A stretch of 64,000 nucleotides of DNA, from NCBI RefSeq assembly GCF_045037415.1, contig NZ_CP173438.1; one strand, 5' to 3'. The number at the start of each line of letters is the position of its first letter. The first letter of the stretch is position 1. A program made the position numbers and the translations under genes. This stretch comes from Escherichia coli (GTDB lineage: Bacteria > Pseudomonadota > Gammaproteobacteria > Enterobacterales > Enterobacteriaceae). This document shows positions 25,326 through 56,618 of this stretch, piece by piece. The notes below the pieces were generated by a model, which saw nothing but the letters and a program-made list of their open reading frames with translations, was not told the DNA's origin and did not search any database.

Positions 25326-25760
25326 CAGTGTTTCTCCTTTCGCCCGCCAGAGTAAAAAGCAACCGTTTATGTTCATGAAACTGTCTAAACACATGCTCGT
25401 GGAGTGCCAGTTTTTGCGAGGAAGGGGAGTTAGAGACAGGAATTGCGGAGGCAATCACATAATCGTGGTTAAACCACGAAAATGAGAAGAGAACCTGACA
25501 ATGGAATTATCTGTAATTTTCTCATATTGATATTTCATTAATCATTCTGGCATGTCGCACTCTCGCATTTAATCGTTTTTATCTGGATAGCATTCTTTTG
25601 ATCGGCAATGTTGAAATAATGAAAGCGGCATAGATTGAGGGGCAATAATTTGAACTCAGTTGCAAAATTATAATTAAAACGGTCATGCTACCTAATATAT
25701 GCCCGTTTATTGCATCGCGAAATTTGAGAAGACATAACTCATTAAATGAAAGGGATGCAA

Positions 25761-36202: not shown

Positions 36203-37531
36203 TTATGCCAGCGCATCCATCCGACGCCACATACTGGCAGCGGCTTTTCTGGCTTGCGCATAAATGGAATCGCAATCGAAGTTAAACTGACGGTCTTCAT
36301 AGACCATCACACCATTGACCATCACGCTGTGAACGCTACCTGAGCCCATACCGAAAGCGATATGCCCGGCGATATTGTCTGCCAGCAGCGGCGTCGGCGA
36401 GTTGTAATCGCAAATGGTTAAATCGGCTTTGTAACCGGCTTCCAGAAGCCCAAATTTCGCGCCAAAGTTGCGGCTCATCAGTTCGTTGCCGTTAGCCAGT
36501 GCTTTGGCAAAACTGTCAGGCCACAGCGGGCCACCCGCATCGCGATGTTTAAAGAAGGCAAATTTCATCTCTTCAAACATGTCCGAACCAATGCCGTCCG
36601 TTCCCAACGCCAGATTGCGGATGTCGCTAAGGTGATGGTTGTAGCCGACATGGTTGTTCATGTTTGAACGGGCGTTATGCACCAGGAACGCATCGCGCTG
36701 ATTGAGTAGGACGATGTCATCTTTCGACAGGTACAGCCCATGAGCGACCAGCGTTTTGCTGTCGATGAGATCGAATTGCGCAAGTCGTGCCAGCAGGTCT
36801 TTGCCGTACCAATGGTGACTGTAGGAAACGTCGTAAAGGTCTTCCGCAACGTGAATATGCAAACCACGACCTGTGCTTTTCACGGCTTCACGCAGCATCT
36901 CCAGACCGGCATCCGGCACGGTAAACGGCGCGTGAGCGCCGATATGTGCTTCCACCAGATACGGCTCGGTTGCTGCTTTCTTCGCCTCATCAATCTGACG
37001 GGTGAAGCGGATGTTTTCTTCTACACCTTCCTGCAACTCTTTGATGCCGTTGTTACGGTCAGTAGTTTCAAAACAGGTCATCGCGCGCAGGCCAACTTTT
37101 AAAAATGCGTTGCGCAATGTGGAGAGCGACCCGTCGATATACGCCGGAGAGGCATGGTGATCGATAACCGATGTACATCCGCTCTTAATCGCTTCCAGGG
37201 AACAAATCAGTCCGCTGTAATAGAGCGACTCTTCATCAAGAGCGCGATCGAGCCGCCACCAGAGATTTTTCAGCGTTGAGATGAAATCCGGGCAGGGGGC
37301 GATGTTTGCCATAATTCCGCGGGAAAGCCCCGAGTAAAAATGGTTGTGCGAGCAGACAATTCCCGGCATCACAATCCGACCATGCATCTCTTTGTAGCTG
37401 GCATCGGGGTAGCGTTGCGTCAGGGCATCGCCGATAGCGACAATCACATCATTTTCGATGGCGATATCAACGCCTTCCTGCACTTTCGCCGGGTGTAACT
37501 GCACTGCGGTGACATTCTTCAGAATCAACAT
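36203..37531 (-). CDS. ssnA: Putative aminohydrolase SsnA (amidohydrolase superfamily)
   Basis: 442 aa; metal-binding HxH motif (GIVCSHNHFYSG). Confidence 0.9.
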   Translation of the reverse strand: MLILKNVTAVQLHPAKVQEGVDIAIENDVIVAIGDALTQRYPDASYKEMHGRIVMPGIVCSHNHFYSGLSRGIMANIAPCPDFISTLKNLWWRLDRALDEESLYYSGLICSLEAIKSGCTSVIDHHASPAYIDGSLSTLRNAFLKVGLRAMTCFETTDRNNGIKELQEGVEENIRFTRQIDEAKKAATEPYLVEAHIGAHAPFTVPDAGLEMLREAVKSTGRGLHIHVAEDLYDVSYSHHWYGKDLLARLAQFDLIDSKTLVAHGLYLSKDDIVLLNQRDAFLVHNARSNMNNHVGYNHHLSDIRNLALGTDGIGSDMFEEMKFAFFKHRDAGGPLWPDSFAKALANGNELMSRNFGAKFGLLEAGYKADLTICDYNSPTPLLADNIAGHIAFGMGSGSVHSVMVNGVMVYEDRQFNFDCDSIYAQARKAAASMWRRMDALA

Positions 37532-40632: not shown

Positions 40633-40953
40633 AACCCTCTCCTTAGCTTATACAGATATCATTGAGTGACCGGTGTTGAGAAATCCGGTGGTTTAGGGGG
40701 ATAGAGCAACAATCGCACCACTCTTGCCAGGTTTGACGGGAAATATAAAAAAATGTGAGGCGGCTCGAAACTTAATGGCTTTTTGTGAATGAACTCACAG
40801 GTGCCAAATGAGAATTAAAATCACTCCTGAAAATTATTATTGCCAGCCCATTTATCACTTTTTCTCTTTTCTCAAAATCAGTGATTCCTTATCATTATGA
40901 TAAAGAGTGCTGGAGGGATTAAATATTTGAACGCAATCGTTTAACTACGTTTT

Positions 40954-41532
40954 CTAAATTTCAGTATACCTTTTCTTCGCTGTAATAAAGTCGTCCGGAG
41001 TATCAATATCTAAAATTATTTCTGCATTTTCTATTTCGACGGAATAATGTTCTCCCATAAGGAGTGCCTGACGCATATTGGTGACATTGGGGCGCTGGAT
41101 TGCCTGCATCAGGCATGGTTTTGACACTAAAATCGGATGGCCGGGGATGCCATTATGGAGTGGCAGTATTGCGCCATCATTTCGTAACGACCAGATTTTT
41201 CTAAAAATATCGATGGTGAGGGTTGGCATATCTCCGTGGGTGAGAAAACAATGTTCTGTTTGCACCGCGGGTACTGCGGCCTTTACTGATGTCAGTAAAC
41301 CCTGCGCATAATCTGGGTTGTGGATAATAGTGATATTGCTCTGGTTCGCATAACGTTCGTGCAGTTCATTACCACGATAGCCGGTGACTAAAATAATTCG
41401 GCTACAAAACTGCAACGCATTTTTGATACTTGTATCAAGAATTGTTCCCTGTTGCCAGGGTAACATCATTTTCCATTGCCCCATTCTTGATGATAATCCT
41501 GCGGCGGTAATTATACAGTCGATGGCTGACAT
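40954..41532 (-). CDS. mocA: Molybdenum cofactor cytidylyltransferase (YgfJ)
   Basis: 192-aa ORF MSAIDCIITAAGLSSRMGQWKMMLPWQQG...; nucleotidyltransferase G-rich loop. Confidence 0.9.
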   Translation of the reverse strand: MSAIDCIITAAGLSSRMGQWKMMLPWQQGTILDTSIKNALQFCSRIILVTGYRGNELHERYANQSNITIIHNPDYAQGLLTSVKAAVPAVQTEHCFLTHGDMPTLTIDIFRKIWSLRNDGAILPLHNGIPGHPILVSKPCLMQAIQRPNVTNMRQALLMGEHYSVEIENAEIILDIDTPDDFITAKKRYTEI

Positions 41533-41635
41533 AGTGATTCCATTATTTACAGGAGCTAATAACGCCTGATAATTGCGTTACTTCCTGATGGATTACGTTG
41601 AGGGTAATTTATCCCAGAGAGGTCCATAAAGACGC

Positions 41636-42406
41636 GTGAAAAGTATAATTGACCCATCGGCATTATTCATTGATTTAGGCGCGCAGAAACGTCCCACTGT
41701 GATTTCTATTGTTGGTGCTGGGGGGAAAACCAGCTTGCTTTTTTGGCTGGCAGAACTGTTCCAGGCGAGTGGCAGGCGTGTATTAATCACTACGACGACA
41801 CATATGTTTATGCCAACATCTCACTGGCCCGTGGTTTTCTGTCGTGATCCCGCCATGCTTCCTCATGCGTCTTTTATATCCCCCATTTCATTTTGTTTTC
41901 ACTGCTGGAAAGCGAACCAGGGAAAAGTGCAGGGATTTACGCCAGAAGCGATTGATGCACTGGTACAACGACCAGAGTGTGACGTAATTCTCATTGAGGC
42001 AGATGGCTCGCGTGGAATGCCGTTAAAAGCGCCTGATGAGCACGAACCTTGCATACCTAAAAGCAGTTGCTGCGTGATTGCTGTGATGGGAGGACATATT
42101 TTGGGTGCGAAAGTGAGCACAGAAAATGTCCATCGCTGGTCGCAGTTTGCTGATATTACTGGGTTAACACCTGATGCACCCTTGCAACTGAGCGATCTCG
42201 TTGCGCTGGTTCGCCACCCTCAGGGCGCGTTTAAAAACGTACCGCAAGGTTGTCGGCGAGTCTGGTTCATTAACCGTTTTTCTCAATGTGAGAATGCGAT
42301 TGCGCAAAGCGAGCTCCTTCAACCGCTGCAACAACACAACGTAGAGGCAATCTGGCTGGGCGATATACAAGAACATCCTGCAATCGCGCGCAGATTTGTG
42401 AATTAG
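41636..42406 (+). CDS. yqeC: Selenium-dependent molybdenum hydroxylase accessory protein YqeC
   Basis: 256 aa; P-loop-like VGAGGKTS near the N-terminus; divergent from mocA. Confidence 0.85.
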   Translation: MKSIIDPSALFIDLGAQKRPTVISIVGAGGKTSLLFWLAELFQASGRRVLITTTTHMFMPTSHWPVVFCRDPAMLPHASFISPISFCFHCWKANQGKVQGFTPEAIDALVQRPECDVILIEADGSRGMPLKAPDEHEPCIPKSSCCVIAVMGGHILGAKVSTENVHRWSQFADITGLTPDAPLQLSDLVALVRHPQGAFKNVPQGCRRVWFINRFSQCENAIAQSELLQPLQQHNVEAIWLGDIQEHPAIARRFVN

Positions 42407-42453
42407 CGGCCCGGGTATTCCGGGTTACTGAAAGGATATCCATTGAGGTTGGT

Positions 42454-44079
42454 ATGAATATTTTCACAGAGGCTGCAAAACTCGAAGAGCAAAATTGTCC
42501 GTTTGCGATGGCGCAAATTGTTGATAGCCGAGGCTCAACCCCCCGCCATTCTGCACAAATGTTAGTGCGCGCCGATGGTTCTATCGTCGGTACAATTGGT
42601 GGCGGAATGGTTGAGCGGAAGGTGATTGAAGAGTCGCTTCAGGCATTGCAGGAACGTAAGCCGCGATTATTCCATGGACGTATGGCTCGTAACGGTGCGG
42701 ATGCTGTCGGGTCAGATTGTGGAGGTGCAATGTCAGTATTTATCAGCGTCCATGGTATGCGTCCACGTCTGGTGTTGATTGGTGCGGGGCATGTCAACCG
42801 GGCGATAGCCCAGAGTGCGGCGCTATTAGGATTTGATATCGCCGTTGCCGATATTTATCGCGAAAGCCTCAATCCTGAACTATTCCCACCATCAACCACG
42901 CTTCTCCATGCTGAGTCGTTTGGTGCGGCAGTGGAAGCACTGGATATTCGCCCTGATAATTTTGTCCTGATTGCCACGAATAATCAGGATCGTGAAGCCC
43001 TCGACAAACTCATTGAACAACCCATTGCATGGCTGGGGTTGCTGGCAAGTCGCCGCAAGGTTCAGCTTTTCCTACACCAATTGCGTGAGAAAGGCGTGGC
43101 TGAAGAACATATTGCCCGTTTACATGCGCCCGTTGGTTACAACATAGGTGCGGAAACGCCGCAGGAGATCGCCATCAGCGTGCTGGCAGAAATATTACAG
43201 GTGAAAAATAACGCGCCGGGTGGGCTGATGATGAAGCCTTCTCATCCTTCCGGACACCAGCTGGTGGTGATTCGCGGTGCGGGGGATATCGCCAGTGGTG
43301 TAGCGCTACGTCTGTATCATGCGGGTTTTAAAGTGATCATGTTGGAAGTGGAAAAACCGACAGTGATTCGTTGTACCGTGGCGTTTGCCCAGGCCGTGTT
43401 CGATGGCGAAATGACGGTCGAAGGCGTCACCGCCCGCCTGGCAACCAGCTCTGCGGAAGCGATGAAACTTACCGAACGCGGATTTATCCCTGTGATGGTA
43501 GATCCCACCTGTTCATTGCTTGATGAACTGAAACCGCTTTGCGTGGTGGACGCTATTCTGGCGAAACAGAATTTGGGAACGCGGGCAGATATGGCACCAG
43601 TAACAATCGCGCTTGGGCCGGGCTTTACTGCAGGGAAGGATTGTCATGCGGTAATTGAAACAAATCGCGGGCACTGGCTCGGTCAGGTGATTTACTCAGG
43701 TTGTGCGCAGGAGAATACCGGTGTTCCCGGCAATATTATGGGGCATACCACCCGACGAGTGATCCGCGCTCCTGCTGCAGGCATTATGCGATCCAACGTG
43801 AAATTAGGCGATCTGGTGAAAGAGGGCGATGTCATTGCCTGGATTGGTGAGCATGAAATTAAAGCACCGTTGACGGGGATGGTGCGTGGCTTGTTGAACG
43901 ACGGACTGGCCGTGGTCGGTGGTTTTAAAATTGGTGATATCGATCCTCGTGGTGAAACGGCTGATTTCACCAGCGTTTCTGATAAAGCCCGGGCGATTGG
44001 CGGCGGCGTACTTGAGGCGTTAATGATGTTGATGCATCAGGGCGTTAAAGCGACAAAAGAAGTGCTGGAAGTGGCTTAA
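42454..44079 (+). CDS. yqeB: Selenium-dependent molybdenum hydroxylase system protein YqeB (XdhC/CoxI-like)
   Basis: 541-aa ORF MNIFTEAAKLEEQNCPFAMAQIVDSRGSTPRHSAQM... Confidence 0.85.
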   Translation: MNIFTEAAKLEEQNCPFAMAQIVDSRGSTPRHSAQMLVRADGSIVGTIGGGMVERKVIEESLQALQERKPRLFHGRMARNGADAVGSDCGGAMSVFISVHGMRPRLVLIGAGHVNRAIAQSAALLGFDIAVADIYRESLNPELFPPSTTLLHAESFGAAVEALDIRPDNFVLIATNNQDREALDKLIEQPIAWLGLLASRRKVQLFLHQLREKGVAEEHIARLHAPVGYNIGAETPQEIAISVLAEILQVKNNAPGGLMMKPSHPSGHQLVVIRGAGDIASGVALRLYHAGFKVIMLEVEKPTVIRCTVAFAQAVFDGEMTVEGVTARLATSSAEAMKLTERGFIPVMVDPTCSLLDELKPLCVVDAILAKQNLGTRADMAPVTIALGPGFTAGKDCHAVIETNRGHWLGQVIYSGCAQENTGVPGNIMGHTTRRVIRAPAAGIMRSNVKLGDLVKEGDVIAWIGEHEIKAPLTGMVRGLLNDGLAVVGGFKIGDIDPRGETADFTSVSDKARAIGGGVLEALMMLMHQGVKATKEVLEVA

Positions 44080-44119
44080 ATGAAAATGGCCGGATGGTAT
44101 TACCCATCCGGCCTTTAAA

Positions 44120-45052
44120 TTACTGACAAATCACCGTTCCGGTTTTGCCTTCAATCCCTTCTTTCGCTTTGCTCAATACGGTAATCAGTGCTTCACGACC
44201 TGCGCGAGAGCGAGCAAACGAGGCGGCAGCTTCCACTTTAGGCAGCATAGAACCTTTCGCAAAATGACCTTCTTCGATAAAGCGTTCAGCATCACTTAAT
44301 GACAGGCGATCGAGCCACTGTTCATTCTCTTTTCCGAAGTTAATGGCCACTTTTTCTACCGCAGTCAGAATGATCAGCATATCGGCATCGATCATTTCTG
44401 CTAAACGGGCACTGGCCCAGTCTTTATCGATAACCGCGCTGGCACCACGCAGATGGTTACCTTCACGAATAACAGGGATACCACCACCGCCAACGGTGAT
44501 CACCACCTGTCCGGCATCTACCAGAGCTTTAACCGTTTCTTTTTCAATGATATCAACCGGTTTTGGCGAAGCAACGACACGACGATAGCCGCGACCCGCA
44601 TCTTCTTTCAGAGTGTAACCCTGTTTTGTCAGTAGCTCTGCTTCTTGCTCGGTAAAGAACGAACCAATCGGCTTGGTCGGGTTGAGGAATGCCGGATCGT
44701 TAGCATCGACTTCGACCTGGGTAACCAGCGTTGCTACAGGTTTATTAATGCCACGAGAAAGCAGTTCTTCTCTTAAGGCGTTTTGTAGATCGTAACCAAT
44801 ATAACCCTGGCTTAAGGCAACACAGACAGACATCGGCAGCATTGGCGAGTGCGCTTCAGTTTTTGCGGCAGCTTCAAAGGCCTGGTTAATCATGCCCACC
44901 TGTGGCCCGTTGCCATGAGTGACGATGACCTCATGTCCCTGGGCAATTAAATCAACAATTGCCTGAGAAGTAATTTTTACCGCTTTCATTTGTCCGGCCA
45001 GGTCATCGCCCAGCGCATTCCCGCCCAGGGCGAGAACAATTTTCTTACTCAT
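44120..45052 (-). CDS. yqeA: Carbamate kinase-like protein
   Basis: 310 aa; amino-acid-kinase fold with LALGGNAL N-terminus. Confidence 0.9.
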   Translation of the reverse strand: MSKKIVLALGGNALGDDLAGQMKAVKITSQAIVDLIAQGHEVIVTHGNGPQVGMINQAFEAAAKTEAHSPMLPMSVCVALSQGYIGYDLQNALREELLSRGINKPVATLVTQVEVDANDPAFLNPTKPIGSFFTEQEAELLTKQGYTLKEDAGRGYRRVVASPKPVDIIEKETVKALVDAGQVVITVGGGGIPVIREGNHLRGASAVIDKDWASARLAEMIDADMLIILTAVEKVAINFGKENEQWLDRLSLSDAERFIEEGHFAKGSMLPKVEAAASFARSRAGREALITVLSKAKEGIEGKTGTVICQ

Positions 45053-45099
45053 TTTTCCTCACTCATCATTCTTGATTGTGTATAGATCCCTGGCAGTGG

Positions 45100-46485
45100 T
45101 TAGAGCACGGGAGGGACAAACGGTTTGCGTCGCAGGAAACGACCTCGCCCGGCTTTGCCTGTAAAGGTGCCGTCGCAGAAAATCGTTTCACCACGGGATA
45201 AGGTTCTGACAATCGCGCCCTGACAGGTAAAACCCTCCCATGGCGAGTAGTCAGCGTTGTCGTGGAGATGGCGATGCTGAATTTGTTGGCTCTGACGTGG
45301 GTCTATAATCACCACGTCGCCATCGGAACCGGGCGCTAATAATCCTTTTTGTGGCCACAGGCCAAACAGCCTGGCGGGCATTGCACTGGTTAACTCAACA
45401 AAACGCTCCGGTGAGATACGCCCCGTCATCACGCCACTGGAGAACAGCAGTTGCATGCGGTTCTCCACACCGGGTAAGCCATTTGGGCAGCGGCTGAAAT
45501 CGCCTTTAGAAATTTGCAGGCGTTGAGCCATCGAGAAGGTGCAGTGATCGGTTGCCACCACGTCAATCGCACCATCGCTGATGCCACACCACAGTTTGTC
45601 CTGCTCGCGTACGTTACGCAGCGGTGGGCTAAGAATGAACTTCATGCCATCTTCTGTATCGTAACTGCGTTCGTCCAACAGGAGATATTGTGGGCAGGTT
45701 TCAACCCAGACTGGCTGGTGATTCGCACGGGCAAGACGCAGATAATCCAGACCTAAGCCGTTAGACAGGTGCACGATATAGAGCGGGGCGTTACCGGCAA
45801 TTTGTGCCAGGTTAATCATGCGGGCGATGGCTTCCGCTTCGCATTCCAGAGGTCGACTCAAGGCATGATAACGCGGCGCGGTTAACCCTGCGGCGATAAA
45901 CTCCGCCCGCTTGCTGGCGATAGCTGCGTCATTTTCCGGGTGCACGGTGGTCAGCGCGCCGGACTCATGCAAGCGGCGTAATGCCTGCAACACTTCATCA
46001 TCGTTGAGTTTATATTGATAGGTTAAATAGAGTTTAAAACTGCTCAGTCCTTCCTCAACCATCATCGGAATTTCGTCGAGGATAGCGTGATTAATATGTT
46101 GAATGACACCGTGAAAGCTGTAGTCGATGACTGCTTTGTGGGCGGCATAACCGCGATAAACTTCCAGTTGATGGCGTAACCGGCAGCCATTTGGGCCAAA
46201 TCCCATATGGTCAATAATGGTTGTTGTACCGCCACACGCAGCTGCGCGGGTACCGGTAAAAAAATCATCACAACTGCGCGCGATGCCGACATCAATATTG
46301 AAATGCGTATGGACATCCACGCCGCCAGGGAAAACGTAACAGCCAGAGGCATCAATTTCTTCGCAAGGGAGTTGCGGCGAAATATCGGTACCCAACTGGC
46401 GAACAATCCCGCTTTCAATCAGCAAATCCTGCTTCGCCTGTCCATCTGCATTAACAACAATGCCGTTTTTTATCAATACGCGCAT
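45100..46485 (-). CDS. hyuA: D-phenylhydantoinase / dihydropyrimidinase-like cyclic amidohydrolase (YgeZ)
   Basis: Track ORF 45100..46497; start MRVLIKNGIVVNADGQ gives 461 aa; metal-binding GGVDVHTHF. Confidence 0.9.
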   Translation of the reverse strand: MRVLIKNGIVVNADGQAKQDLLIESGIVRQLGTDISPQLPCEEIDASGCYVFPGGVDVHTHFNIDVGIARSCDDFFTGTRAAACGGTTTIIDHMGFGPNGCRLRHQLEVYRGYAAHKAVIDYSFHGVIQHINHAILDEIPMMVEEGLSSFKLYLTYQYKLNDDEVLQALRRLHESGALTTVHPENDAAIASKRAEFIAAGLTAPRYHALSRPLECEAEAIARMINLAQIAGNAPLYIVHLSNGLGLDYLRLARANHQPVWVETCPQYLLLDERSYDTEDGMKFILSPPLRNVREQDKLWCGISDGAIDVVATDHCTFSMAQRLQISKGDFSRCPNGLPGVENRMQLLFSSGVMTGRISPERFVELTSAMPARLFGLWPQKGLLAPGSDGDVVIIDPRQSQQIQHRHLHDNADYSPWEGFTCQGAIVRTLSRGETIFCDGTFTGKAGRGRFLRRKPFVPPVL

Positions 46486-46537
46486 AGCAAACTCCAAAAA
46501 CCCTCCGGTGAACCGGAGGGGAATAAGTGAAGAGTAA

Positions 46538-47749
46538 TTATTCGGTTGCCAGCCAGCTTAATGGGATTGCAGCGTACATAGCGGCACAGGTTACCAGGTG
46601 AGATTTCCAGGTTTTTTCGTTTGGCGCGTGCGCTTCCGGTTCTTTACCGGGGCCAAAACCGATGACCGGAATGCCGTGGCGACCCATGATGGATACGCCA
46701 TTAGTCGAGAAGGTCCACTTATCAACGACAGGCGCTTTACCAAACAGCCCTTCATAAGCATTCACCAGTGCTTTAACGGTGAAGTGATCTTCTTCCACTT
46801 TCCAGGTCGGGAAGTAGCATTCGGTTGGGTAAACCAGGCCAGTCCAGGACGGGCGGTCGTAGTTGTACATAGAAACGACAGCATTCGCTTTTTGTACTGC
46901 AGGCAGGGCACGGATCTCGTCCAGCGCGCCTTCCCAGGTTTCGCCCCAGGTCAGACGACGGTCGATTGAAACTGCGCAGCTGTCTGCGACAGCGCAACGG
47001 CTTGGGGAGGTGAAGAAAATTTCAGAAACGGTGAGGGTGCCTTTGCCGAGGAATTCGTCATAACCCAGACGTTGGGAGAGTTCTTGTAATTCGCCAAGAA
47101 TCGGACCCATTTTGAAAATGGCGTTATCACCGCGTTCTGGTGCCGAACCGTGGCAGCTAACACCCTGAACATCAATACGAATTTCCATACGACCGCGTTG
47201 ACCACGGTATACCTGGCAGTCGGTTGGTTCGGTACTGACCACAAATTCCGGGCGAATGCCGGATTGTTCAATAATGTACTGCCAGCACAGGCCGTCGCAG
47301 TCTTCTTCCTGCACAGTACCGGTAACCAGCAGGGTATATTCATCTTCCAGACCGAGATCTTTAATGATTTTACCGGCATATACCATAGACGCCATGCCGC
47401 CTTCCTGGTCGGAAGTACCACGACCACCGATCAGCTCGTCGGTTTCCATGCCTTCATACGGATCGAAGTCCCAGTTTTTGATGTTGCCAATGCCGACTGT
47501 ATCGATATGAGCGTCCATTGCCACCAGACGCGGGCCGTGGCCGATATAACCGAGAACGTTGCCCATTGGGTCGATTTCAACTTTATCGAAGCCGACTTTT
47601 TCCATCTCTTCTTTAATACGATGTACTACGCGTTTCTCGTCGCAGCTTTCACTGGGAATAGCAACCATATCGCGCAGGAAGCGAGTCATGTCTGCCTGGT
47701 AATCTTTTGCTTTTTCAAGAATCAGTTTGAATGGAATATTCTTAGCCAT
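46538..47749 (-). CDS. ygeY: M20-family peptidase / amidohydrolase YgeY
   Basis: 403-aa [43 protein letters not shown]... Confidence 0.9.
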
Positions 47750-47806
47750 TATTTTTCTCCAGATTTTTTACTCCCCGTTTTGCAGGGAGCAGTTCCAATA
47801 GGGTGA

Positions 47807-49003
47807 TTAAGGTGCTACAGCGTGTTTGCCTTCCCAGACAACTTCGCGGTAGTGCTTCACGTCGGTGTCGCCTTCAGTGCTGATAACCAGCACCACGGCA
47901 TCTTTGTTCAGCGCCAGTTTTTCCATCAGGCTTTGACGTTGCGGGTGATAATGAACCGCTGCGAGAACGCCCAAACCGACAGCGCCGGATTCACCGGAGA
48001 TGATGCGCGGGTCGTTGCCGTACGGATTACCCAGCACGCGCATACCTAATGCGGCAACGCTGTCCTGGCAGGAGATGAATTGGGTGGCGCAGTTACGTAG
48101 GATTTCCCAGCCCAGCGGGTTAGGTTCGCCGCAGGCCAGGCCCGCCATGATGGTGGCCATATCACCGCCAACGTTGACGATGTCGCCTTTGACGCCGGAG
48201 CGATAAATACAGTCAGCTTTGTCAGGTTCAACAATAATGCTGTGCAGATTTTGCGGGCTATAGACGTCGACCAGATAACCCAGCACACCACCGGCCATTG
48301 CACCGACACCTGCTTGCAGCAGAACGTGTGTCGGGGTTACGCCCATTTCACGCATTTGCTCGACGGCTTCATCCGCCAGTGTTGCGTAGCCTTGCATGAT
48401 CCAGGTTGGGATTTTGGTGTAACCTTCCCATGCCGTGTCCTGTACCACTTCCCAGCCGTGCTGCTGCGCGTGTTGCATGGTCAGGCGAACGGTATCGTCA
48501 TAGTTCATATCCGTGACGATGCACTCGGCACCGAGGTTTAGAATGGCGTCAACGCGTTCCTGAGCAGAACCTTTCGGCATGTAAATCACCGCATTCTGTC
48601 CGAGTTGCTGAGCGGCCCATGCCACACCGCGCCCGTGGTTGCCGTCGGTGGTGGTCGCGAAAGTCATTTTTTCGCCAATGGCATTTTTCAGGTGCTCAAA
48701 TGATAGCGTTTCGATATCAAGATGATATTTTTCACACAATAATTGAGCGATGGCGTATGCGCCGCCGAGCATTTTGAAGGCGTTCAGACCGAAGCGTTTT
48801 GATTCGTCCTTAACGAGAATTTTCTTTACACCAAACAGGTTTGCGAGATCGTCCAGCGCACAAAGCGGTGTTGGGCGATAACCAGCAATTTTCTGGTGGA
48901 ACTGGCGTGCCAGTTTTGCCTGGCTTTGCGAAAAAAGCGGTGATGTTTCGCCGTTGAAAAATTTGTTATCGGCGATATCAATCTTTAATGAGAAAACGGA
49001 CAT
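47807..49003 (-). CDS. dpaL: Diaminopropionate ammonia-lyase (PLP-dependent; YgeX)
   Basis: 398-aa ORF MSVFSLKIDIADNKFFNGETSPLFSQSQAKLARQFHQKIAGYRPTPL... Confidence 0.9.
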   Translation of the reverse strand: MSVFSLKIDIADNKFFNGETSPLFSQSQAKLARQFHQKIAGYRPTPLCALDDLANLFGVKKILVKDESKRFGLNAFKMLGGAYAIAQLLCEKYHLDIETLSFEHLKNAIGEKMTFATTTDGNHGRGVAWAAQQLGQNAVIYMPKGSAQERVDAILNLGAECIVTDMNYDDTVRLTMQHAQQHGWEVVQDTAWEGYTKIPTWIMQGYATLADEAVEQMREMGVTPTHVLLQAGVGAMAGGVLGYLVDVYSPQNLHSIIVEPDKADCIYRSGVKGDIVNVGGDMATIMAGLACGEPNPLGWEILRNCATQFISCQDSVAALGMRVLGNPYGNDPRIISGESGAVGLGVLAAVHYHPQRQSLMEKLALNKDAVVLVISTEGDTDVKHYREVVWEGKHAVAP

Positions 49004-49060
49004 ATCCTATCCTTTTGGCCTCTGGAAATAGAGGGCCGACCAGCTGATCGGCCCGAGGGG

Positions 49061-50251
49061 TTATTTCACGCGTTCTTGCGCTTCTTTCAGCAGTTGCTCG
49101 AGCAGTGCACCTGGTTTGGCGTATTTACGGGACAGGATCATCGCGGCGATGATATAAGGCTTCCAGCTGGCTTCTTTGTAGGTAGCGATACGGTATTTTT
49201 CGAATACGCCTTCAGTCACTTCACCTTCTTTGCAGGATACGCCGCTGATATCAGCTGGCAGGCAGTGCATGTACAGGGCTTCGCCATCACGGGTCAGCTC
49301 CATCATCTCTTCGGTACAATGCCAGTCTTTGTGCTGTGCGTTCTGTGCCAGACACTGTTTTTCCAGCGCTTTCAGTCCTTCGTGATCGTTCGCACGCAGC
49401 AGTTCAGTACGCTCTTCCATCACTTTGTAAGGTGCCCAGGACTTCGGATAAACGATGTCTGCGTCTTTGAAGGCTTCTTCCATGCTGGTGACCTGACGGA
49501 AGCTACCACCGGAGGCTTTAGCATTGTTTTTAGCAACTTCAACGACATCCGGGATCAGGTCGTAGCCTTCCGGATGGGCCAGGGTGACATCCATACCGAA
49601 GCGGGTCATCAGACCGATGATGCCTTGTGGTACAGAGAGCGGTTTGCCATAGCTTGGGGAGTAGGCCCAGGTCATGGCGATTTTTTTACCTTTCAGGTTT
49701 TCCAGTGAACCAAAGTGTTCACGTAACCATGCCAGATCAGCCATTGATTGAGTCGGGTGGTCAATATCGCATTGCAGGTTCACTAAAGCCGGACGCTGCG
49801 GCAGCACACCCTGCTTGTAACCGTCATCAAGTGCAGCGCCAACTTCACGCATATAGGCGTTGCCTGCGCCCAGATACATATCGTCGCGAATACCGATAGC
49901 GTCAGCGCAGAAGGAGATCATATTGGCGGTTTCACGCACGGTTTCGCCGTGAGCGATTTGTGATTTACCTTCGTCAAGATCTTGTTGTGCAAGGCCGAGC
50001 AGGTTAAGCGCGGAAGCATAAGAGAAGCGGGTACGGGTGGAATTGTCGCGGAATACGGAAATACCTAATCCACTATTAAAGACTTTGGTTGAGATGTTTT
50101 CAGCACGCAGTGCTTTTAACGCGGCGGCAACGTCCAGTACTTGTTTCAGTTCGTCTGGCGTCTGTTCCCACGTTAACAAAAAATCTTTTTCATGCAGGTG
50201 AGAGGTCAGCGAATTGATATCCTTAATCAGCTCATTAACAGTTTTCATCAT
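49061..50251 (-). CDS. ygeW: Carbamoyltransferase-family protein YgeW
   Basis: 396 aa; ATCase/OTCase-like fold with STRTR motif (RDNSTRTRFSYASA). Confidence 0.9.
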   Translation of the reverse strand: MMKTVNELIKDINSLTSHLHEKDFLLTWEQTPDELKQVLDVAAALKALRAENISTKVFNSGLGISVFRDNSTRTRFSYASALNLLGLAQQDLDEGKSQIAHGETVRETANMISFCADAIGIRDDMYLGAGNAYMREVGAALDDGYKQGVLPQRPALVNLQCDIDHPTQSMADLAWLREHFGSLENLKGKKIAMTWAYSPSYGKPLSVPQGIIGLMTRFGMDVTLAHPEGYDLIPDVVEVAKNNAKASGGSFRQVTSMEEAFKDADIVYPKSWAPYKVMEERTELLRANDHEGLKALEKQCLAQNAQHKDWHCTEEMMELTRDGEALYMHCLPADISGVSCKEGEVTEGVFEKYRIATYKEASWKPYIIAAMILSRKYAKPGALLEQLLKEAQERVK

Positions 50252-50726
50252 AAAGTCCCGATAGTGGAATGACAGGCAAAGTGGTTTATTTCACTGTGAC
50301 GTGCCAAAGTGATTGGTGTTTTCACAGCTATACCTCGGACTAACAATAAGTGTGCCAGAATTATCCACGCGGCTGCGAAAGGCTAATTTGACGGATAATG
50401 TGTGGGGTTGATCACATATTGATGCCAGTTTCCGGTTGTTTGTAAAATACGAAAACGTTTGGCTTTTTTTATTACGTTATTTATTTGCTGCTAAGTATCA
50501 GAAATAAGATAAAGAGGCAGGCTATCTCTCTTCAGTTTGATAAACTTGCCGCTGTAATTCTCATATTGATATAGAAATGTGATATCTCTTCCATAATTTT
50601 ATTAGAAAGTGATAAAAATCTTATGTTTTTATCAAAGCCAATTTCGCCTGAGTTAATATCATCATGATCTGTGAACCATCAACGTCTTCAATGATCGACT
50701 TTTAAGTAAGTCTGGAAGGTAAAGCT

Positions 50727-52505
50727 ATGGAGCTTGCGACTACGCAGTCAGTATTGATGCAAATTCAACCAACAATTCAGCGTTTTGCCAGAATGCTTGC
50801 CAGCGTTTTGCAGCTTGAGGTTGAGATCGTTGATGAAAACTTGTGTCGCGTCGCCGGAACGGGCGCGTATGGGAAGTTTCTTGGCCGCCAGTTGAGCGGC
50901 AACTCACGTCTGCTCCGCCACGTCCTGGAAACGAAAACTGAAAAAGTTGTGACACAGTCTCGCTTCGATCCCCTTTGTGAAGGTTGCGATAGTAAAGAAA
51001 ATTGCCGCGAAAAAGCATTTCTGGGTACGCCAGTCATTTTACAGGATCGTTGTGTTGGGGTGATAAGTTTGATTGCCGTTACCCACGAGCAACAAGAACA
51101 TATCAGTGATAATTTACGCGAATTTTCCGATTACGTTCGCCATATATCCACCATTTTTGTTTCTAAACTTCTGGAGGATCAGGGACCAGGAGATAACATC
51201 AGTAAAATATTCGCGACCATGATCGATAATATGGATCAGGGCGTGTTAGTGGTTGATGCTGATAATCGGGTTCAGTTTGTTAATCAGACAGCTTTAAAAA
51301 CACTCGGTGTTGTACAAAATAATATTATTGGAAAACCTGTTCGTTTCAGACCATTAACATTTGAGAGTAATTTTACCCATGGTCATATGCAACATATTGT
51401 TTCGTGGGATGATAAAAGTGAATTAATCATTGGTCAGTTGCATAACATCCAGGGCCGACAACTATTTTTAATGGCGTTTCACCAATCGCATACCAGTTTT
51501 TCTGTAGCAAATGCACCTGATGAACCGCATATTGAACAATTGGTTGGCGAGTGCCGTGTTATGCGGCAATTAAAACGACTCATTAGCCGTATTGCACCCA
51601 GCCCATCCAGCGTTATGGTGGTTGGTGAAAGCGGCACGGGTAAAGAAGTCGTCGCCCGTGCAATCCATAAGTTGAGCGGAAGACGGAATAAACCCTTTAT
51701 TGCTATCAACTGTGCCGCGATTCCGGAACAGCTTCTGGAGAGCGAACTGTTCGGTTATGTTAAAGGCGCATTTACTGGCGCTTCTGCCAACGGTAAAACA
51801 GGGTTGATTCAGGCGGCGAATACGGGCACGCTGTTTCTCGATGAAATTGGTGATATGCCATTAATGTTGCAGGCTAAATTACTGCGCGCTATTGAGGCGC
51901 GTGAAATTCTGCCGATTGGTGCCAGTAGCCCAATACAAGTCGACATCCGCATCATTTCTGCAACTAATCAGAATTTGGCCCAGTTCATTGCCGAAGGTAA
52001 ATTCCGCGAAGATCTCTTCTACCGACTTAATGTTATCCCGATAACTCTTCCACCGCTGCGTGAACGTCAGGAAGATATTGAATTACTAGTGCATTACTTT
52101 TTACATCTGCATACCCGTCGTCTGGGATCGGTTTATCCTGGCATTGCTCCTGATGTCGTCGAAATATTGCGTAAGCATCGTTGGCCCGGAAACCTGCGCG
52201 AGTTAAGCAATTTGATGGAATATCTGGTTAACGTTGTTCCTTCAGGTGAAGTTATCGACAGCACGCTATTGCCGCCAAATCTGCTGAATAATGGCACAAC
52301 GGAGCAAAGTGATGTAACAGAGGCCAGTGAGGCGCACCTGTCACTCGATGATGCGGGCGGCACGGCGCTGGAAGAGATGGAAAAGCAAATGATCCGCGAG
52401 GCGCTTTCACGTCATAACAGCAAGAAGGAAGTTGCTGATGAACTGGGCATCGGCATTGCTACGCTCTATCGCAAGATTAAGAAATATGAGTTGTTAAACA
52501 CATAA
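50727..52505 (+). CDS. ygeV: Sigma-54-dependent transcriptional activator YgeV
   Basis: 592 aa; central AAA+ domain with Walker A (GESGTGKE) and the sigma-54-contact motif GAFTGA; C-terminal HTH (ELGIGIATLYRKIKKY). Confidence 0.93.
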   Translation: MELATTQSVLMQIQPTIQRFARMLASVLQLEVEIVDENLCRVAGTGAYGKFLGRQLSGNSRLLRHVLETKTEKVVTQSRFDPLCEGCDSKENCREKAFLGTPVILQDRCVGVISLIAVTHEQQEHISDNLREFSDYVRHISTIFVSKLLEDQGPGDNISKIFATMIDNMDQGVLVVDADNRVQFVNQTALKTLGVVQNNIIGKPVRFRPLTFESNFTHGHMQHIVSWDDKSELIIGQLHNIQGRQLFLMAFHQSHTSFSVANAPDEPHIEQLVGECRVMRQLKRLISRIAPSPSSVMVVGESGTGKEVVARAIHKLSGRRNKPFIAINCAAIPEQLLESELFGYVKGAFTGASANGKTGLIQAANTGTLFLDEIGDMPLMLQAKLLRAIEAREILPIGASSPIQVDIRIISATNQNLAQFIAEGKFREDLFYRLNVIPITLPPLRERQEDIELLVHYFLHLHTRRLGSVYPGIAPDVVEILRKHRWPGNLRELSNLMEYLVNVVPSGEVIDSTLLPPNLLNNGTTEQSDVTEASEAHLSLDDAGGTALEEMEKQMIREALSRHNSKKEVADELGIGIATLYRKIKKYELLNT

Positions 52506-56166: not shown

Positions 56167-56618
56167 GCATGATTCACCCGTAGCGGTTGCTTCCCGCGCT
56201 TCCATAGAAATCCCCTCGGTTTGAACATTTGGTTCTTATGGCAAAGATTTAGTCTTAGCAGGCAAGAATTACGCCAGAAACGACTATATGCGTGAGGGGA
56301 GGAAGGAAGTGTGATGACGTTAAAAAAACACAGATATGATACGAAACAGGACTCTGAATAGGGACAGTGATACGTATCAATATGAGTGGCGATAAAATCA
56401 ATGTGATAAATTAGGATTATTACGCATCAAGGTGGGAAATAGGGTAAAAGTCAGGAAATTCGATACCACTACAGCAAATATTTTGCTGATGATACTTCCC
56501 TTTGCCAAATGAAATTAACCTCTTTCTCTATTACATCGTTTTTCCAGAAGCAAGAGATTGGGTATCAAGAGGCTGGCTGCTATGATATGGCGTCTTGTTT
56601 TTTAAGCGAGGAAAGATT

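Follow-up and report, generated by a model that had tools for sequence, protein, structure and literature searches.

A probable sigma-54 promoter of the ygeW operon with a conserved T at -12, and a candidate YgeV operator, in the ygeW-ygeV spacer of Escherichia coli

We identified, at positions 50342-50358 on the minus strand of a 64,000-nucleotide stretch of Escherichia coli DNA (the whole of which is called the window here), a -24/-12 element, CTGGCACACTTATTGTT, that is very probably (roughly 85%) the sigma-54-dependent promoter of the ygeW operon, acting together with YgeV and CRP. The element lies in the 475-bp spacer between two divergent genes: ygeW (49061-50251, minus strand), coding for a knotted carbamoyltransferase and being the first gene of the transcribed operon, and ygeV (50727-52505, plus strand), coding for a sigma-54 enhancer-binding protein that RefSeq names a sigma-54 interaction domain protein (ygeW was delimited from its open reading frame and the RefSeq annotation). 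On the same strand, ygeW is followed by dpaL/ygeX, ygeY, hyuA and arcC/yqeA, and the operon and its neighbours encode a pathway of gut bacteria for the anaerobic degradation of uric acid that has been worked out recently and that bears on gout and on engineered probiotics. The 801 bases around the ygeW-ygeV finding match several E. coli chromosomes with 100% identity and occur in 5,181 of 5,426 complete genomes.

An earlier note on this DNA had expected a sigma-54 promoter near the activator gene ygeV and had read two TGGCAC hexamers on the ygeW strand as possible promoters, both lacking GC at -12 and followed by TTGTT and AGTGA, respectively. Both hexamers and both downstream elements are present as described (50352-50357 and 50301-50306), and the expectation is borne out at the upstream hexamer by its matrix score, by published in vivo binding and by conservation. 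This hexamer (minus strand) matches the -24 consensus at 6/6 positions, with the -24 G at 50355, and is followed 5 nt on by TTGTT, the -13/-12 doublet being GT, not GC, with the non-canonical -12 T at 50343. Allowing for at most two mismatches, the consensus TGGCACN5TTGCW turned up 48 times where 44 matches would be expected, and is uninformative alone. We therefore used a weight matrix built from 38 intergenic ChIP-verified sigma-54 sites of the published ChIP-seq table, from which the 4 sites inside the window were excluded. With this matrix CTGGCACACTTATTGTT scores 16.0 bits, the highest value among 128,000 positions (64 kb, both strands), which corresponds to p = 1.8e-6 per position and to 0.0017 matches expected in the 475-bp spacer and 0.23 in the window (both strands). 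It also outscores 58% of the ChIP-verified sites, when each of them is held out in turn.

The upstream site coincides with a site bound in vivo: sigma-54 ChIP-seq reported OS30, with peak centre 3004190 and assigned to ygeW, whose 17-nt motif is identical to the one in the window (Bonocora et al., 2015). OS30 was given a distance of 80 to ygeW and a signal 3-fold above threshold, weak when compared with 11 for xdhA and 26 for ygfK, and had no prior EcoCyc record (Bonocora et al., 2015). A gSELEX peak of the RpoN holoenzyme was also located within the ygeV/ygeW spacer (Shimada et al., 2021). At the level of expression, ygeWXY, xdhABC, ygfK and ygfT form one 'YgeV' co-expression module (iModulon) in PRECISE-1K, which cites lower ygfT expression in a ygeV mutant.

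The site is oriented toward ygeW, 90 nt from the ATG. Counting 12 nt from the -12 base gives the distances listed in the ChIP table (80 for ygeW, 62 for ygfK and 36 for ygfT), and by this rule the ygeW transcript is predicted to start at 50331 (minus strand), so that a leader of 80 nt would precede the ATG at 50251. The leader contains a block of invariant or near-invariant columns across 12 genera, GCCTGTCATTCCACTATCGGGA / GCCnGTCATTcCACTAcCAGGA (50256-50277, minus strand), upstream of the ygeW ATG. This block is longer than a ribosome-binding site requires and may serve in translational control or as a target site for an sRNA; an Rfam search of the ygeW-ygeV spacer, leader block included, gave no family matches.

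Conservation was assessed in 12 genera, namely E. coli and eleven others, whose YgeV proteins are, where measured, ~69-71% identical to that of E. coli: Citrobacter, Pseudocitrobacter, Trabulsiella, Atlantibacter, Enterobacter, Raoultella, Kluyvera, Intestinirhabdus, Pluralibacter, Serratia and Cedecea. The diverse set of orthologues came from a protein search seeded with Enterobacter YgeV, as the search seeded with the E. coli protein returned near-identical E. coli entries only; a genome scan with YgeV gave, among the matches listed, mostly distant paralogues and 1 orthologue. In each of the 12 genera the top sigma-54 match of the spacer faces ygeW, with 77-106 nt between it and the ATG; in the 11 genera other than E. 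coli it reads YTGGCAYNNTTATTGTT and scores 15.4-16.7 bits. TGGCA and TTATTGTTA are invariant in the alignment, against an average column identity of 59% for the whole spacer.

The -12 T of ygeW lies within TTATTGTTA and is itself invariant across the 12 genera; judged from this alignment, it is a conserved property of the promoter and not a sign of decay. Two experimentally confirmed promoters in the ChIP table, those of pspA (TTGGCACGCAAATTGTA) and pspG (TTGGCATGATTCTTGTA), also have GT at -12 (TTGTA), so the GC doublet is a feature of the consensus and not a requirement. The missing GC, on which the earlier note had based its doubts, consequently loses its force, considering also the rank of the site among the held-out ones and its identity with OS30. 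The psp promoters resemble that of ygeW in the pattern TGGCA(C/T)-N5-TTGT, with T for C at -12, and in being bound by sigma-54 in vivo, but their ChIP signals are 21 and 15, compared to 3 for ygeW.

More distant relatives place this variant in context. Full-length YgeV homologues of Firmicutes (33-39% identity) adjoin strong canonical sigma-54 sites; in Sedimentibacter (L005 3001-7584), the gene of a homologue with 36% identity is followed by TTGGCACAAGTTTTGCT (20 bits) and then by ygeX-ygeW. This arrangement corresponds to the DioR regulon reconstructed for Clostridiales, in which a sigma-54 activator controls dpaL, ygeW-ygfK-ssnA-ygeY, yqeB and others. The gene set is that of the E. coli cluster, but DioR-type loci have a canonical TTGCT at -12 and their genes are co-directional, not divergent. 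Taking the Firmicute homologues and the DioR regulon together, sigma-54 control of this gene set is, as far as these comparisons of loci go, old; what is specific to the enterobacterial ygeW promoter is the GT variant. We also observed in Citrobacter werkmanii (L004) a 38% identical YgeV paralogue that is divergent from a ygeX-like gene, with a site of 14.4 bits.

The matrix scan of intergenic regions, a check that had been proposed for this cluster, recovered its four ChIP-verified sites as the best scores of their respective intergenic regions: ygeW with 16.0 bits, xdhA with 12.1 bits (CTGGCGTAATTCTTGCC, 56261-56277, minus strand, OS29), ygfK with 11.7 bits (GTGGTGCGATTGTTGCT, 40705-40721, or TGGTGCGATTGTTGCT, 40705-40720, minus strand, OS31) and ygfT with 7.1 bits (TATGCCCGTTTATTGCA, 25698-25714, plus strand, OS32). 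The last three keep GC at -12 and deviate at -24 (TGGCGT, TGGTGC and TATGCC), whereas ygeW has a perfect -24 and a deviant -12. A TGGCAC upstream of ygfK, noticed previously as similar, does exist, though at 40801-40806 and not at 40820-40840; it is not the ygfK promoter, as it scores -6.9 bits and the site bound in vivo is GTGGTGCGATTGTTGCT. Two intragenic matches, in ssnA (36777-36793, minus strand, 13.7 bits) and in ygeX (48897-48913, minus strand, 13.4 bits), were rejected; they are not in the ChIP tables and ~1 such match is expected by chance. Upstream of uacT, a member of the YgeV co-expression module, CTGGCACTCCACGAGCA (25394-25410, minus strand) has the form GG-N10-GC, scores 7.6 bits, lies 69 nt from the gene and is not among the ChIP-seq sites; uacT may or may not have a sigma-54 promoter of its own. 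The ygeW and ygfK sites are 9,637 bp apart in the window (40713-50350), whereas the published coordinates of K-12 place them 9,816 bp apart, so that this strain is ~179 bp shorter than K-12 in this interval.

Upstream of the promoter we noticed a CRP box, TGTGATCAACCCCACA as read on the ygeW strand (50401-50416), centred at -77.5 from the predicted sigma-54 start. CRP sites were judged here by consensus and not by a weight matrix: the box has 9/10 bases of TGTGA-N6-TCACA, and the form yGTGA-N6-TCnCA is conserved in 12/12 genera. The ygeV<>ygeW spacer, ygfK and the ygfT<>ygfU spacer are CRP targets in gSELEX, and uric-acid degradation is glucose-repressed, a repression that was bypassed by a promoter cassette replacing 'the native Crp-binding site' in the ygeV-ygeW spacer. 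ygfK resembles ygeW in having a CRP core between its candidate enhancer and its promoter; this core, TGTGAATGAACTCACA (40784-40799), is perfect, precedes the -24 G of ygfK by 73.5 bp, is centred at -97.5 from the predicted start and directly abuts the TGGCAC at 40801-40806. The IHF core WATCAANNNNTTR had no match in the ygeW-ygeV spacer and 3 in the rest of the window, a number that chance accounts for; its absence from the spacer fits the idea that CRP provides the bend, without being proof of it.

YgeV has the domains of a sigma-54 activator: an AAA+ Sigma54_activat domain (residues 272-439, E = 2e-70) with the GAFTGA motif at residues 347-352, a Fis-type helix-turn-helix, HTH_8 (548-587, E = 6e-13), a PAS domain (162-206) and a weak GAF-like N-terminus, and no receiver domain in the domain search. 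A candidate operator for this protein is a palindrome, TATCA-N3-TGATA, which resembles Fur and FNR half-sites and which occurs in a block conserved in the 12-genus alignment (50530-50598). Within the block there are a candidate enhancer at -234, TATCAATATGAGA (50559-50571), which includes the 12-mer CTCATATTGATA and is a perfect TATCA-N3-TGATA in 5 genera, a second one at -205, TATCAAACTGAAG (50530-50542), where TATCA-N3-TG is invariant in the 12 genera, and a stretch with invariant columns, AAATATGGAAG.GATATCACATTT (50572-50598), which has 2 mismatches to the palindrome and may be either a weak TATCA site, then at -247, or a half-site of CRP type that faces ygeV. Across the 12 genera the arms of the palindrome are conserved and the three central bases are variable.

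The same motif is found at the other sigma-54 promoters of the cluster. The 12-mer CTCATATTGATA has exactly 3 copies in the 64 kb (50560-50571; 25521-25532, ygfT; and 56375-56386, xdhA), each of them upstream of a ChIP-verified sigma-54 site, while 0.24 matches would be expected even with one mismatch allowed; we found no match for it in the context of YgeV in the literature searched. A perfect palindrome, TATCATAATGATA (40890-40902), lies upstream of ygfK, the candidate enhancer of ygfT is TCTCATATTGATA (25520-25532) and xdhA has two candidate sites (56375-56387 and 56396-56408). Allowing two mismatches at most, TATCA-N3-TGATA has 8 sites in the four upstream regions (-332, -247, -234 and -205 for ygeW, -152 and -131 for xdhA, -202 for ygfK and -199 for ygfT), against 1.4 in composition-matched shuffles (p ~5e-4). 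Thus xdhA, ygfK and ygfT are like ygeW in being ChIP-verified, in belonging to the same module and in having the palindrome 131-202 bp upstream of their predicted starts. A point against the proposed arrangement is that the enhancers, at 107-210 bp from -24, do not share a helical phase among the four promoters. As an independent replicate of the pattern, Kluyvera, Raoultella and Intestinirhabdus have after ygeV an MFS transporter gene, whose upstream region (L083 4283-4541, L084 4280-4555 and L089 4280-4729, respectively) contains TATCACTCTGAGA, a second TATCA 21 bp off and a sigma-54 site of 10.8-13.6 bits, which points to an additional promoter of the YgeV type, one that E. coli lacks at that position.

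On this evidence we lean, by a narrow balance, toward TATCA-N3-TGATA being the YgeV operator. The competing explanation that deserves most attention is that another regulator recognises the palindrome, for instance a repressor of ygeV or a factor resembling Fur or FNR, and that YgeV binds elsewhere. The ygfK copy contains ATAATGATAA, which matches the core of the Fur box, and the xdhA copy forms TTGATACGTATCAC, with 9/10 bases of the FNR consensus; moreover, the pathway is anaerobic, with Fe-S and Mo enzymes, and the block is just 129-194 bp from the ygeV ATG. Nevertheless, the motif precedes all sigma-54 promoters of the cluster and, together with a sigma-54 site, also the unrelated MFS gene in three other genera. 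A second FNR half-site is missing from the copies at ygeW and ygfT, and the distance from the block to -24 is fixed, whereas the one to the ATG of ygeV has a spread of 21 bp. We regard binding by another regulator, hence, as rather unlikely, though a serious competitor to the assignment of the palindrome to YgeV.

The fixed distance is part of a geometry that is maintained in all 12 genera. The -234 palindrome lies 208-213 bp (sd 1.3) from the -24 G, the interval between the -234 and -205 palindromes is 29 bp (28 in one genus), the -205 site is 112-115 bp (sd 0.9) from the CRP box, the CRP centre is 53.5-54.5 bp from the -24 G and the TGATAC block on the ygeV side is 90-94 bp from the -234 site, while the distances to the two start codons vary (sd 6.5 and 8.6). 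Because the length of the 112-115-bp spacer is kept and its sequence is not (pairwise identity 0.53, near random), this arrangement argues for a stereospecific nucleoprotein complex that would join the enhancer, CRP and the sigma-54 promoter. It is an evenly balanced proposition whether the whole constitutes a rigid 315-bp enhancer module of Enterobacteriaceae, in which a new operator at every sigma-54 promoter of the cluster would be combined with CRP in place of IHF and with a -12 T selected for tuning; in such a module the T would, for example, keep the occupancy of the closed complex low and the dependence on YgeV and CRP tight.

The promoter assignment itself has to be weighed against the reading that sigma-54 binds 50342-50358 without firing, as one of many non-productive E. 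coli sites, and that ygeW is transcribed from a sigma-70 promoter. The authors of the ChIP-seq study speak of 'binding sites', not promoters, and state that binding does not prove promoter function (Bonocora et al., 2015), the ChIP signal is just 3-fold above threshold and the -12 base is non-consensus. However, the site keeps its orientation, its distance to the ATG and its sequence in 12 genera, alongside a rigidly spaced upstream module, the expression of ygeWXY follows that of the cluster's other sigma-54 operons, and Firmicute YgeV homologues adjoin canonical sigma-54 promoters of ygeX-ygeW. Sigma-70-like matches are also no commoner than chance: a scan of the spacer returned 2 matches against 2.3 expected by chance, and the sole one toward ygeW overlaps the ygeW start codon and was discarded. 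We consider this reading improbable and retain that of a functional sigma-54 promoter.

The second TGGCAC, in TTGGCACGTCACAGTGA (50291-50307, minus strand, hexamer 50301-50306), is a chance match inside the leader and, of the two hexamers proposed as promoters, it is the one that did not hold. It scores -0.2 bits, a low value because its -12 half, AGTGA, matches nothing, and chance alone would give ~6 matches of this level in the spacer; in the other 11 genera of the alignment its region is either missing or has an unrelated sequence. That both hexamers are sigma-54 promoters, with tandem starts ~50 nt apart, is accordingly very improbable, since ChIP-seq shows one motif only, even if two TGGCAC upstream of ygeW on one strand of 475 bp are uncommon (~0.12 expected per strand). 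A third -24-like element, CTGGCATCAATATGTGA (50412-50428), reaches 2.3 bits, is not conserved and was likewise rejected.

Toward ygeV, no sigma-54 site was apparent in the spacers of the 12 genera, the best matches having less than 10 bits and none being conserved. The other sigma-70-like match of the spacer (50419-50448, plus strand) was set aside, as its part of the spacer is poorly conserved outside E. coli and Citrobacter (alignment A2). A possible -10 element of a sigma-70 promoter of ygeV, which we propose with low confidence, is TAATAT at 50654-50669 (plus strand; TAGTAT in other genera), for which no good -35 element was seen. In E. coli it is overlapped by TATCATCATGATC, in which the palindrome has 1 mismatch. 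At least 90% of the 12 genera retain ATGATACTA, and its distance to the -234 site is fixed, at 90-94 bp. We observed, furthermore, a perfect 9-bp inverted repeat in E. coli, TGATAAAAA-N7-TTTTTATCA (50610-50634), of which both arms are changed in Trabulsiella (TGATAAAGA/TCTTTATCA) and which is only partly conserved in more distant genera.

We propose the following mechanism for the sigma-54 promoter of ygeW. RNA polymerase with sigma-54 would sit on TGGCAC-N5-TTGT as a closed complex, the binding being known from the published ChIP-seq and gSELEX, and would be unable to open the DNA alone, the opening step being supplied by the divergently encoded AAA+ protein YgeV, whose GAF-like and PAS domains are of the sensor kind. 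YgeV would bind TATCA-N3-TGATA ~205-247 bp upstream, reach the polymerase by DNA looping and open the ygeW promoter by ATP hydrolysis. CRP, on its box at -77.5 between enhancer and promoter, probably bends the DNA, as IHF does at other sigma-54 promoters, and probably ties the expression of ygeW to the absence of glucose. Transcription would then begin near 50331, 80 nt ahead of the ygeW ATG.

Known systems share parts of this arrangement. The psp promoters respond to the activator PspF and use IHF rather than CRP; PspF has no sensor domain and is kept in check by PspA. The pair prpR-prpBCDE is organised like ygeV-ygeW, with the activator gene divergent from a sigma-54 catabolic operon, and the expression of prpBCDE needs cAMP-CRP in addition to sigma-54 and the activator. 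It differs in using IHF, in having another sensor domain and ligand (2-methylcitrate) and in its canonical -12, GTGGCACACCCCTTGCT. The ygeW promoter itself is already known, its mapping dating from 2015; what may be new is the candidate YgeV operator together with the fixed geometry, and the conserved -12 T could be a modest addition as well.

For the engineer or geneticist, knowing which of the motifs is genuine decides which of them to choose as the target for mutation. As far as the engineering of this pathway is concerned, the ygeW promoter very probably depends on sigma-54 and YgeV, and probably on CRP as well, with all of them at fixed distances. If the rigid-module reading is true, the YgeV regulon would be definable from sequence, and the module would offer handles for engineering uricolytic probiotics.
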